This document shows positions 6,172 to 9,199 of a stretch of DNA of 64,000 bases, one piece after another. Source of the stretch: Candidatus Heimdallarchaeota archaeon (GTDB lineage: Archaea; Asgardarchaeota; Heimdallarchaeia; Hodarchaeales; Hodarchaeaceae); the NCBI GenBank assembly GCA_020353515.1, contig CP070695.1, positions 3,288,118-3,352,117 on the forward strand. The letters are read 5' to 3'. The stretch's first letter is position 1. Each line of letters starts with the position of its first letter. The translations under genes were made by a program, and so were the position numbers. The notes under the pieces were generated by a model, which saw only the letters and a list, made by a program, of their open reading frames with translations, was not told the origin of the DNA and did not search any database.

Positions 6172-6984
6172 ATGCCTTTGAGGATTTATGTGTTGGAAAT
6201 AAAATCAATTTCGAAAAAGAATTTGGAACTGATCCGTAAATGTGTTAAATTGGCTGATACTGATTATTTTGACAACATAGTTTTACTGGGTGACCTCTTT
6301 CCTCCTTGTATTAAACTGACAGATATTTACGGCATCTTCAATGATAATACTCTAATATCGTTTTTCACTGTTTTTAAAGGATTTAAAGTTCCCTCTGTGG
6401 TTCTTCCAAGTAATTTATCTGGGATCGAATCATTTATTCTTTCTAATCTGGATAAAATAATACACAAAGAATTTACTTTGGTTTCATTCACTCTGAGTAG
6501 GAATAACTTGATCAATCATTATCAAATTAAAGATGAAAGTTCTGAATATTGCATGATCACTGATCAGACTAGTTTTACACCAAAAACATCTGATCTCATC
6601 TTTAAACAGGTAACCAAAGATAATATCAACCGTATTGATAGGTTTTATAGAGCGATTGACACTTATCCATGGAATCCTATTCAGATAGAAAGTAATTTTT
6701 ATTTCTACTTTGAAAAAGATAATAAGATAATTGCTTGTGGAGGGACACACTTTGAAACTCCTGATGTGGCGCATCTAGGAAATATAATTGTGTTAGCTGA
6801 ATTCCGTGGACAGTCTTTAGGGTCAGCTTTAGTTTCAACCATCACAAGCAATATCCTTAGATCTAAATCCTATGCAACTTTATTTGTTACTCAAGATAAC
6901 CTTCCTGCTATTAATCTCTATAAAAAATTAGGTTTCTTTCATCATAAACCAGTGTCAATTTTTTCTTGTAAAAGAACCTTTTAA
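6172..6984 (+). CDS. GNAT family N-acetyltransferase (C-terminal GNAT domain)
   Basis: VLAEFRGQSLGS acetyl-CoA motif A; NLPAINLYKKLGF motif B. Confidence 0.85.
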   Translation: MPLRIYVLEIKSISKKNLELIRKCVKLADTDYFDNIVLLGDLFPPCIKLTDIYGIFNDNTLISFFTVFKGFKVPSVVLPSNLSGIESFILSNLDKIIHKEFTLVSFTLSRNNLINHYQIKDESSEYCMITDQTSFTPKTSDLIFKQVTKDNINRIDRFYRAIDTYPWNPIQIESNFYFYFEKDNKIIACGGTHFETPDVAHLGNIIVLAEFRGQSLGSALVSTITSNILRSKSYATLFVTQDNLPAINLYKKLGFFHHKPVSIFSCKRTF

Positions 6985-7178: not shown

Positions 7179-8237
7179 ATGATCATCAAGAACCTCTGGA
7201 TTATTTCTAAAGTTGGTATGTGTTATTACGACTACAGTGCTCCATTTTCTGACTATCAAATAGACGAAATTTTATTTTCTGGGCTTGTGGCTGGACTTTC
7301 AACATTTGCTGAATCTCTTAGTGTAGAAAACAAAACTATAGAATATTTAAAATTGGGAGAGGATGAACTTTATTTCGAAACGATTGATGATACTATTGTA
7401 GCTGCAATCGTGTCCGCTGGGGATGAAAAACTCCAATCGTTTTCTATCCATGTTATGCTCCAATTCATTGGAACAAAATTCGTAGATATGTATTACAAAG
7501 AAGTAGAAGATATGTTCTTCGAATGGGCTGAAATTAGAAATTCTTTTACTCAAGAAATTAAAAATTTCTTATTTGATCAAGATTTACTTGAAGATATTAA
7601 AAGAGAACAATTTCAAAATCTATTTAATGAAACAATTATGGGTAATATCCCCTTGGATCTGCTTCATTGGAGAGGAATTCAATTATTTGCTAATTCAAAC
7701 CCAGATGTTTTATCAAACTCTTTGAAACTAATAGCAAATCTCCAAGATGTGGCATCTTCGTTAATTAGTGATGAACTTCTTGAAGCTAAAGTTCTAGATG
7801 TTTTACGTCGACTCTTGAAAGATTTATCTTCAAATATTTTTGATCAAGATCCTAGAAAGCTTCTACTCCTTTGCAAGGATGATGATACTTTCAAATCTTT
7901 ATATAAGGTATTATTAGCTAGAGAAATCCTTGCGATACACTGTCCAACCTTTGAGTACCTTCAAGGGGTTATTGAAACCTGGCAAGATCCGAATCCTTAT
8001 GACATTCTCATCATTGACACACAAATCTCTACAAAAGATATTCGAACCTTGCACAATATGGAAATGATTGACGATGCTAAAATTATAATGGTAGTTAATA
8101 AGATTCCTAGACCTCCCCGGGGAAGATTGGTTCAAAAAAAACCGATTTCTTTTATTGTCCAAGAAAACATCTCAGATTTCGACTTGAATACTCCTTTAGT
8201 AGATTACCTATTAACTTGCTTAGTTCATGAGTCGTAA
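7179..8237 (+). CDS. Longin-like N-terminal domain fused to a C-terminal receiver (REC)-like domain
   Basis: N-term IKNLWIISKVGMCYY...LFSGLVAGLSTFAESL...IEYLKLGEDELYF...IVAAIV (longin). C-term KLLLLCKDDD...YDILIIDTQIS...KIIMVVN (REC-like). Confidence 0.6.
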   Translation: MIIKNLWIISKVGMCYYDYSAPFSDYQIDEILFSGLVAGLSTFAESLSVENKTIEYLKLGEDELYFETIDDTIVAAIVSAGDEKLQSFSIHVMLQFIGTKFVDMYYKEVEDMFFEWAEIRNSFTQEIKNFLFDQDLLEDIKREQFQNLFNETIMGNIPLDLLHWRGIQLFANSNPDVLSNSLKLIANLQDVASSLISDELLEAKVLDVLRRLLKDLSSNIFDQDPRKLLLLCKDDDTFKSLYKVLLAREILAIHCPTFEYLQGVIETWQDPNPYDILIIDTQISTKDIRTLHNMEMIDDAKIIMVVNKIPRPPRGRLVQKKPISFIVQENISDFDLNTPLVDYLLTCLVHES

Positions 8238-8263: not shown

Positions 8264-9199
8264 TCAGATTTTCGGTATAAGAGGGACTTGTCTCGTAAAG
8301 GCGGCAGAATTGTAATAAGTGCTAACTTTTTCAATTGTTTCAAAAGGAATATCCATTTTGTTGCTTATCTCAGTGATAGATCGCCCCTGTTCAAGTTGAA
8401 TTATAATCCTATCAACATCGCTAACAGGAAGCTCAAAAAAATACATGTACTTATTTTGGACACCAGGTATGAGATCAGCTTTGGATAAATTCTTAATAGC
8501 ATCTGGAAGTTTAAGAAATTCAGCGACTTTAAATATTTGAGAACGATATAGATCCCCTAAAGGCATTAAATCGGCAGAATGTCCATGCCCCCATTTAGTA
8601 AATAAGCCAGTATAAAGCTCAGTTTTATTGATTGTACCTACAAGAAAACGATTCTCTTGTTCTGCAGTAAAATATGCAACTGCCATTTGAAGCCTAGAAC
8701 GAAATTTATTGTGAGCGATAATTTTATGAATCCATTTTTCTCTATCTGAAGTTGCTTTTCCTACCATTCCATAAGTTTTCTCTTCAATTTCTTTCTTAGC
8801 CGTGTTCTTTAGCAGAGAGTAACTAAGTGGTTGGTACAATGAAGGAATTTCTCGAACAGACCCAGGTATAAGATCTTTGGATTCAAAGCTCTTAAGCATG
8901 GGTTCTATATCACATCGTACTATATTTTCTTCGGGAACCTCTAAAAATTCAATTGATGCTTCTAGAGTTTCTTCTTGTTTTTCAAAATATTTATTAGTTC
9001 TTATGAGTAATTTTACTTCTTCGGCACCCACAGCTTCTAGACATAATTTAGAAACTATTGTTGAGTCCATATAACCAGAAAATAGTACTAAAACGCCTTC
9101 TACTCCCCTTTCCTCTATAGATGTTCCAATAAAATGAACAATTCGTTCCACAATATTAGCTACATCATTACTAATATCAAGCACTTTCAAGTTTCCCAC
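8264..9199 (-). CDS. NAD+ synthetase (NadE)-like protein, divergent paralog
   Basis: NadE fold motifs are present but altered: SGYMDS (for SGGxDS), VGTINKTE, FTKWGHG, DLMPLGDLYRSQI. Confidence 0.75.
   Translation of the reverse strand: MGNLKVLDISNDVANIVERIVHFIGTSIEERGVEGVLVLFSGYMDSTIVSKLCLEAVGAEEVKLLIRTNKYFEKQEETLEASIEFLEVPEENIVRCDIEPMLKSFESKDLIPGSVREIPSLYQPLSYSLLKNTAKKEIEEKTYGMVGKATSDREKWIHKIIAHNKFRSRLQMAVAYFTAEQENRFLVGTINKTELYTGLFTKWGHGHSADLMPLGDLYRSQIFKVAEFLKLPDAIKNLSKADLIPGVQNKYMYFFELPVSDVDRIIIQLEQGRSITEISNKMDIPFETIEKVSTYYNSAAFTRQVPLIPKI

Follow-up and report, generated by a model that had tools for sequence, protein, structure and literature searches.

What might a longin domain and a CheY-like receiver fold do in a single polypeptide? 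The question is raised by a 64,000-nucleotide stretch of DNA (hereafter the window: positions 3288118-3352117 of C1, the single contig of a 4.94-Mb genome, G000) from a Candidatus Heimdallarchaeota archaeon, in which one gene encodes P0001, a protein of 352 residues. A first-pass annotation, made from the sequence alone, had described this product as an N-terminal longin, a helical middle and, from about position 7854, a segment resembling a two-component receiver (REC) domain, and had read the hybrid as a bridge between a longin module and prokaryotic signalling. Our analysis leads us to propose, with a probability of roughly one half, that the protein serves the Asgard Che pathway as an accessory component or output adaptor that needs no phosphorylation. 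The bridge itself gains real support, and the small-GTPase half of that reading none, from the relatives, which reside in chemotaxis (che) operons beside cheR, cheW and cheC, or, among the distant ones, carry a canonical REC. The gene and its parts are as follows:

7179..8237, plus strand: the whole gene (from the list of open reading frames, ORFs), ATG start, encoding the longin / helical / pseudo-receiver protein P0001, 352 residues
7179..7514, plus strand: longin domain, residues 1-112, Mon1/Fuzzy-like, beta-beta-alpha-beta-beta-beta-alpha (model, VIA-align, Foldseek)
7515..7844, plus strand: helical bundle of about five helices, residues 113-222 (AlphaFold2 model)
7845..8234, plus strand: CheY-fold pseudo-receiver domain, residues 223-352 (model and VIA-align)
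7878..7886, plus strand: D234-D235-D236, after beta1 KLLLLC, at the REC acidic-pocket position (model-to-sequence mapping)
8016..8018, plus strand: D280, after beta3 YDILII, at the phospho-acceptor position (model-to-sequence mapping)
8097..8126, plus strand: Pro/Arg loop N307-K-I-P-R-P-P-R-G-R316, replacing alpha4 (model, alignment)

The N-terminus MIIKNLW is invariant in 26 aligned homologues, and the called start is therefore correct. Compared with close orthologues, the ratio of nonsynonymous to synonymous substitution rates (dN/dS) is 0.058-0.070, indicating strong purifying selection; the 352-residue ORF is therefore a real, constrained gene. A homologue search of the genome itself found it to be single-copy. 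Fifty-three homologues were retrieved, all of them in metagenome-assembled genomes of Hodarchaeales, Heimdall or Promethearchaeota; by its homologues, the window belongs to Hodarchaeales, within the Asgard phylum Promethearchaeota. Neither the whole protein nor any of its domains had a meaningful family match in Pfam, NCBIfam or the PDB sequences; matches to WNK CCTL2 and DUF6063 were weak, fell below the cutoff and were discarded. A second word-index homologue search with a wider alignment added no further families, and a scan of metagenome contigs with an alignment of the distant clade described below yielded one weak fragment only. Mean pairwise identity differs along the chain, being 67% in the longin domain, 73% in helix 134-153, 77% in the Pro/Arg loop and 49% in the C-terminal domain; of the domains, the longin is the most conserved and the C-terminal one the least.

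We modelled the protein with AlphaFold2 from the 26-sequence alignment (mean predicted local distance difference test score, pLDDT, 78.3) and compared its parts exhaustively with solved structures using VIA-align; Foldseek was used additionally for the longin part. The model divides the chain into three parts: residues 1-112 form a longin domain, 113-222 a bundle of helices and 223-352 an alpha/beta domain like that of CheY. The longin domain comprises strands 2-10 and 15-20, helix 30-49, strands 57-59, 62-69 and 72-79, and helix 87-109, with helix 116-132 following. This is the longin topology, and in the model no helix precedes beta1, which begins at residue 2. In VIA-align, residues 1-138 superposed on TRAPP (3cue_A) with a Z of 11.9 and a root-mean-square deviation (rmsd) of 3.5 over 130 aligned residues, on Fuzzy (7q3d_C) with a Z of 11.7, on the VAMP7/SYBL1 longin at 11.4-11.6 (2dmw, 11.6; 2vx8_A, 11.4) and on 3egd_C and 2jkr_I at 11.3 each. 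Taken together, matches to proteins of the TRAPP Bet5/Trs23 type, Fuzzy, VAMP7, Sec22, AP sigma (AP2), BLOC-3 and Mon1-Ccz1 had Z values of 10.5-11.9, the top superpositions having rmsd of 2.7-3.7 Å over 113-130 residues; MglB (3t1r_A) matched at Z 10.3. Foldseek placed the domain with the same longin families at a probability of 1.0. Both the modelled topology and the Z values of 11-12 to solved longins thus uphold the longin assignment made for the N-terminus.

The sequence of this domain leads to the same families by a longer route. The longin profiles of Pfam (Fuz_longin_1, Longin, Sybindin, Clat_adaptor_s) gave no direct match to the protein, even at E<=10. A profile of the family matches stand-alone proteins of 130-160 residues in 374 of 400 Asgard genomes (E 1e-7 to 1e-17). 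One of these relatives, P0094, scores above the Pfam cutoff for Fuz_longin_1 (28.6 vs. 26.1 bits), the stand-alone longin of the present genome matches that profile with an E of 0.0026, and others have sub-threshold matches to Fuz_longin_1, Intu_longin_1, Clat_adaptor_s and Robl_LC7. A shape search of the ESM Atlas returned an Asgard cluster termed “FUZ/MON1/HPS1 first longin” (template modelling score, TM, 0.70 by the hit). Because of the profile matches to stand-alone relatives and this cluster, we conclude that the N-domain belongs to a widespread Asgard family of Mon1/Fuzzy-like longins; its sequence link to Fuz_longin_1 is transitive only, running through the stand-alone Asgard paralogues. 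The same longin domain also heads ORFs of ~700 residues in one family of genomes, and G101:C28:48130-48504 is a stand-alone example from another Asgard genome. That of the present genome is located as follows:

G000:C1:1723455-1723862 (L057:928-1362), minus strand: stand-alone longin, overlapping the ends of unannotated ORFs of 106 and 305 residues in an operon-like arrangement

The helical middle is present in the model as five helices spanning residues 116-220 (116-132, 134-153, 160-170, 175-195 and 199-220), the second of which bears a conserved DIKREQFQNLF. Its structural matches in VIA-align were limited to generic helical designs.

Does the remainder of the protein adopt the fold of a receiver? 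Beta1 starts at residue 226, which corresponds to the position near 7854 at which a REC-like segment had been placed, and the motifs quoted for that segment are all present. The modelled elements (strand 227-232, helix 235-247, strand 252-255, helix 258-266, strand 274-279, helix 285-293, strands 302-306 and 323-327, helix 339-349) form a (beta-alpha)5 layout of five parallel-type strands with helices 1, 2, 3 and 5, in which a loop replaces alpha4. Save for that helix, the CheY-like fold anticipated for the domain was recovered both in the model and in the structural search. Residues 224-352 matched receivers with Z values of 9.8-10.8 (rmsd 2.6-3.3 Å, 104-116 residues aligned), and nearly all of the top matches were receivers, led by KdpE (4kfc_A; Z 10.8, rmsd 3.1, 112 aligned) and followed by 3cg4_A, 3snk_A and FixJ. 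The likeness claimed at the level of sequence fared worse: Pfam had no match to residues 222-352 even at E<=10, PF00072 included, hhalign of the domain against an alignment of the genome’s own CheY gave a probability of 0.8%, and a profile search of the PDB with the C-domain returned designed proteins only. The hhalign alignment paired D275, not D280, with D53 of CheY and was judged unreliable. Homology of this domain to REC is therefore plausible, because of the modelled fold, and unproven, because no sequence method links the two.

The REC catalytic set is incomplete in the protein. As the first-pass annotation had stated, the Thr/Ser after beta4 and the Lys after beta5 are missing: N307, following IIMVV, occupies the former position and Q328, following ISFIV, the latter. 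The genome’s own CheY has the full DD/D/T/K set. The accompanying claim of a retained phospho-acceptor Asp stands for this protein and its sub-clade, in which D280 is present, but does not extend to the family, as only 11 of the 26 homologues have Asp there (D11, E4, S3, Q3, H2, G1, N1, K1). The wider family has D, Q, N, S, K, H, E, R or G at this position; in the orthologues from che operons, the residue is H, Q or S. The acidic pocket is similarly variable among the 26 (position 234: N7, S6, D5, E4, K3, Q1; position 235: D8, T6, E5 and others). Because the acceptor and the beta1 acidic residues vary among homologues, phosphorylation is, as far as the alignments indicate, not a conserved function of the family.

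The loop that stands in for alpha4 is itself conserved. No helix is modelled between strands 302-306 and 323-327, where pLDDT is 80-88, and within the Hodarchaeales clade I309, P310, P313, G315 and R316 hardly vary; the loop is missing from the distant clade. Receivers use their alpha4-beta5-alpha5 face for output, and the position of the Pro/Arg loop falls on that face.

Which pathway might such a protein serve? At six distinct Hodarchaeales loci (L003, L006, L008, which is also L037, L009, L034 and L036), the orthologue lies 33-45 nucleotides after cheR, in the operon order (cheB)-x-cheW-multiCheW-cheY-cheA-cheC-cheD-cheR-gene. On its 3' side, five of the six loci have a DUF835 gene, a PAS/DUF835 gene (PAS-PAS-DUF835) and then genes for methyl-accepting chemotaxis proteins (MCPs); at L034 the MCP genes follow directly. 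These six orthologues form one subclade, with support of 100/99. An exhaustive profile-free search also uncovered a distant clade of 30-40% identity with the same three-domain layout, one member of which is annotated as Promethearchaeota archaeon; the Hodarchaeales clade and this distant clade split with 100/100 support. Three of its loci had usable flanks; all of these are linked to che genes, in three different arrangements. At L060, cheR lies 240 nucleotides upstream, facing a full MCP-x-cheW-cheY-cheB-cheA-cheC-cheD cluster; at L053/L054, cheW lies 25 nucleotides downstream of the gene; and at L005, cheC lies upstream of it. The related loci inside che operons or che-linked number nine, and the window’s own gene is not among them. 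Because the linkage survives to ~33% identity and through rearrangement, it argues for a functional tie to Che. The DUF835 genes that follow the orthologue in the operons lie at:

L003:7207-10242, L006:9219-12027, L008:9210-12515 and L009:9791-13270: a small DUF835 gene and a PAS-PAS-DUF835 gene after the studied gene (context)

A more distant set of relatives bears on what the longin-helical module might do. In P0069, P0071 and P0075 (516-526 residues; loci L051 and L058), a canonical N-terminal REC (E 1e-18 to 1e-20; DD/D/T/K present) is followed by ~130 unassigned residues, the longin-helical module and half of the C-domain (beta1-alpha1-beta2-alpha2). Because it is fused behind a canonical REC in these three proteins, the longin-helical module, judging from their sequences, provides the output of true response regulators in other proteins. 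A single sequencing run is the source of all three, on contigs that also bear further genes of Asgard type (e.g., GPP34).

We next consider how the gene is distributed. The search for the same architecture in Asgard genomes that the first-pass annotation had suggested found full-length orthologues in 13 of the 22 genomes of the genus-level group and in none of the other 378 Asgard genomes searched (400 in total); the distant clade shares the layout. Scoring the 22 related genomes as Che-positive if they had at least four strong matches to the CheW domain, we found ten with both the gene and Che, three with the gene only, two with Che only and seven with neither. The one-sided hypergeometric probability, calculated by hand, is ~0.017, a figure that overstates the case since the genomes are kin. 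In G060, one of the two Che-positive genomes from which the gene is absent, the che contig is cut at cheC. The association between gene and Che is strong but not obligate.

These Che systems are also short of a recognized output. Some Loki- and Heimdallarchaeia possess Che genes, and chemoreceptor arrays have been seen in Asgard archaea (PMC9834061); CheF is the usual archaeal output link (PMC13705601). The profiles of CheF (PF04283) and archaellin (PF01917) had no match in any of the 22 genomes, although control genomes responded, and ArlD/E and FliG had no match in the window’s genome; the Che systems are therefore without known output. Type-IV-filament systems occur sparsely among Asgard archaea (PMC13705601). 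The window’s genome has one such locus, adjoining the gene for the large subunit of DNA polymerase D:

L050:6603-14506 (L050 is G000:C1:1414001-1433000), minus strand: type-IV-filament locus with a PilB3-like ATPase (502 residues), two T2SSF genes and four pilin-like genes, DUF7261/7288/7266/7289 (profile matches)

The PilB3-like ATPase is present in 21 of the 22 related genomes at 91-98% identity and is far more conserved than most of the genes compared. As it is present regardless of the studied gene, its phyletic pattern cannot test a link between the two.

In the present genome, the che operon reads cheB-x-cheW-multiCheW (1150 residues)-cheY-cheA-cheC-cheR, with a convergent second cheB. 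It has no cheD between cheC and cheR, unlike the operons in which the studied gene is embedded. The features of this operon to which we refer are:

L026:4800-5903, plus strand, and L026:15756-16850, minus strand: two CheB genes flanking the operon (gene context)
L026:10225-13677 (G000:C1:3502225-3505677), minus strand: gene for a giant protein of 1150 residues with five or six tandem CheW domains (domain content)
L026:14610-15350 (G000:C1:3506610-3507350), minus strand: gene x, ~240-260 residues, between cheB or MCP and cheW, with no Pfam match

The orthologues of the multiCheW protein in related operons are 750-1175 residues long. Gene x, whose orthologues include L036:1520-2245 and L055:2209-2997, looks like a second longin-like protein and could be a partner longin of the studied protein. 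Its predicted secondary structure has the order beta-beta-alpha-beta-beta-beta-alpha, in a model that is poor (AlphaFold2 pLDDT 37, five sequences). An hhalign alignment to the studied family is in register and weak (E 0.0023, probability 12.7%), and its ESM Atlas features point to Roadblock/LAMTOR2/Fuz_longin_1 clusters at 0.87. Gene x is kept in G070, a genome without the studied gene. Co-folding of the full-length studied protein with the CheY of its own genome gave scores of 0.23 and 0.18, with the mark at 0.32, which counts neither for nor against an interaction.

In the window, a 194-nucleotide AT-rich stretch bearing the TATA-like AATATATAAA lies upstream of the gene. The genes on either side are:

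6172-6984, plus strand: GNAT acetyltransferase with an N-terminal extension of ~150 residues without assignment, 194 nucleotides upstream on the same strand
8264..9199, minus strand: NadE-like (PP-loop) gene, tail-to-tail with the studied gene at a distance of 26 nucleotides (Pfam NAD_synthase, E 2.6e-33)

Synteny with the GNAT gene is confined to the window’s close sub-clade (L027-L030). The convergent NadE-like neighbour is also found at L027, L028, L029, L033, L035 and L001 (which is L038), making seven loci with the window; some relatives (L001, L035) have a second NadE-like copy nearby. We regard this neighbour as conserved sub-lineage context only, any functional link to the gene being putative at most.

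From these data we envisage a soluble three-domain adaptor of Hodarchaeales and some related Asgard lineages. Its pseudo-receiver and Pro/Arg loop would dock onto, or be gated by, CheY, CheA, CheC or CheR, and its longin domain, possibly as a dimer platform, would engage a downstream target, either the type-IV-filament machine, which is universally conserved, or a small GTPase. On this reading, the gene of the present genome has left the che operon, and it is preceded by an AT-rich region of its own. A more specific form of this proposal, which we hold to be tentative and rather unlikely, is that, in the archaeal lineage nearest to eukaryotes, a bacterial-type Che phosphorelay without archaellum or CheF outputs via this protein, perhaps paired with gene x, onto a GTPase, cytoskeleton or polarity module or a type-IV filament.

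Several observations weigh against assigning the protein to Che. Profile searches found no sequence relation to PATAN or CheF. The window’s gene lies outside the che operon of its genome, which is ~202 kb away, and eight loci, the window’s included, share a NadE-like and/or Lhr helicase neighbourhood instead; nor were che genes found beside the REC-fused relatives when their loci were checked. The kinship of the 22 genomes makes the co-occurrence counts overstate independence. Moreover, G057, G059 and G077, which are 80-91% complete, have the gene without a detectable Che system, and G070, which is well assembled, has an intact che operon in which cheR is the last gene and the studied gene is absent. 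The gene therefore does not strictly depend on Che, and Che can do without it.

How do other explanations account for the same observations? If the protein were a regulator of a small GTPase that acts through a longin platform (as a guanine-nucleotide exchange factor, GTPase-activating protein or scaffold) in membrane or cytoskeleton control independently of chemotaxis, the che position in some lineages would be incidental or secondary. The longin does match the platforms of Mon1/Ccz1, Fuzzy, TRAPP and MglB at Z 10-12, stand-alone longin paralogues are present in 374 of the 400 Asgard genomes, the gene is outside the che operon in eight loci, the window’s included, and the three genomes just named have it without Che. 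Yet a common fold does not show function, no GTPase gene adjoins the gene in any locus examined, and che linkage recurs in two deeply split clades and in three gene arrangements; on balance we consider this explanation unlikely. Quite improbable is a scaffold or housekeeping protein whose C-domain has a generic flavodoxin-like fold, with the REC likeness and che neighbourhood both meaningless. In its favour, no sequence homology to REC was found; flavodoxin-like folds are widespread, solved structures include a disproportionate number of receivers, and common descent by itself could explain the synteny with the NadE-like and Lhr genes. This explanation sits poorly with the predominance of receivers among the top matches to the C-domain (nearly all, at Z ~10-10.8 over 104-116 residues), with the 33-45-nucleotide spacing after cheR kept in six loci, with the recurrence of che linkage at 33% identity and with the phyletic co-occurrence with Che.

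The remaining explanation, a genuine phosphorylatable response regulator in which CheA or another kinase phosphorylates D280 and thereby switches the longin, would suit the three Asp after beta1 and the Asp at the end of beta3 that the protein and its close relatives keep, as well as the distant relatives that pair a true REC with the same output module. It is nevertheless very hard to credit, as N307 and Q328 occupy the Thr/Ser and Lys positions, helix alpha4 is missing, there is no PF00072 signal, and 15 of the 26 homologues, among them all six che-operon orthologues, have E, S, Q, H, G, N or K instead of Asp at the acceptor position. We thus favour the phosphorylation-independent Che adaptor. 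A full-text literature search for longins together with Asgard and with receivers or chemotaxis returned no description of the architecture or of the che linkage. On our reading, the protein would be a chemosensory adaptor of the output-domain-plus-receiver kind in which a longin fold is joined to a dead receiver. The conserved, operon-embedded longin and CheY-fold protein is a concrete, clonable candidate for the missing Che output link. If the more specific form of the proposal is true, what chemosensing steers would be a longin platform of eukaryote style and not the switch of a rotary motor.

How does the protein compare with known systems? By sequence, it is not a PATAN, CheF or REC member. 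A PATAN identity, to which a low-score ESM Atlas feature lead (0.75-0.76) had pointed, was rejected, PF14332 having no match in the protein, its genome or 121 Asgard genomes. Cyanobacterial che-like operons encode PATAN-REC regulators, whose N-terminal domain mediates their action on PilB/PilC; at least one of them, PixE, cannot be phosphorylated and relies on this domain alone (10.1101/2021.06.11.447907; PMC11181946). The studied protein resembles these PatA-type regulators (PixG, PixE, the PilG-like TaxP) in its build, namely ~350-380 residues with an N-terminal alpha/beta and helical part and then a C-terminal receiver, and nine related loci, though not the window’s own, share their location in che-like operons; the hosts of PatA move by type IV filaments, not flagella. 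It differs from them in that its N-domain has a longin fold, its helical part comes after the alpha/beta domain instead of being inserted, and its receiver is degenerate throughout the family. With CheF (DUF439), which links CheY-P to the archaellum switch ArlCDE, it has in common a comparable position in the che cluster, in genomes without CheF; in contrast, there is no sequence relation between them (PF04283, no match), and archaellin was not detected in the 22 genomes.

On the eukaryotic side, the N-domain has the topology of the Mon1/Ccz1/Fuzzy/HPS1 and TRAPP/AP sigma/SNARE longins, with Z values of 11-12 to solved members. Unlike the Mon1 and Fuzzy types, the protein has one longin, not a tri-longin arrangement, and continues into a helical bundle and a CheY-like domain; unlike roadblock/LC7 proteins (MglB), whose order is alpha-beta-beta-alpha-beta-beta-beta, it is missing the extra N-terminal helix, with beta1 starting at residue 2. 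In Myxococcus, Frz chemosensory output via receiver or pseudo-receiver proteins and the MglB platform steers type-IV-pilus motility (PMC13408092). The parts list of that module (MglA, MglB, RomR, FrzS), a receiver or pseudo-receiver plus a roadblock/longin-like platform, is similar, except that the parts are separate proteins there and fused here, where no MglA-like gene is linked. In its role, the studied protein may be analogous to the PatA-type (PATAN-REC) regulators of cyanobacteria and to CheF of euryarchaea. Were a GTPase or the cytoskeleton its target, a polarity module of eukaryote-like kind would be connected to prokaryotic chemosensing in the archaea most closely related to eukaryotes. 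A type-IV-filament machine as target would make the protein an archaeal counterpart of the PatA-type regulators, reached with a different fold.

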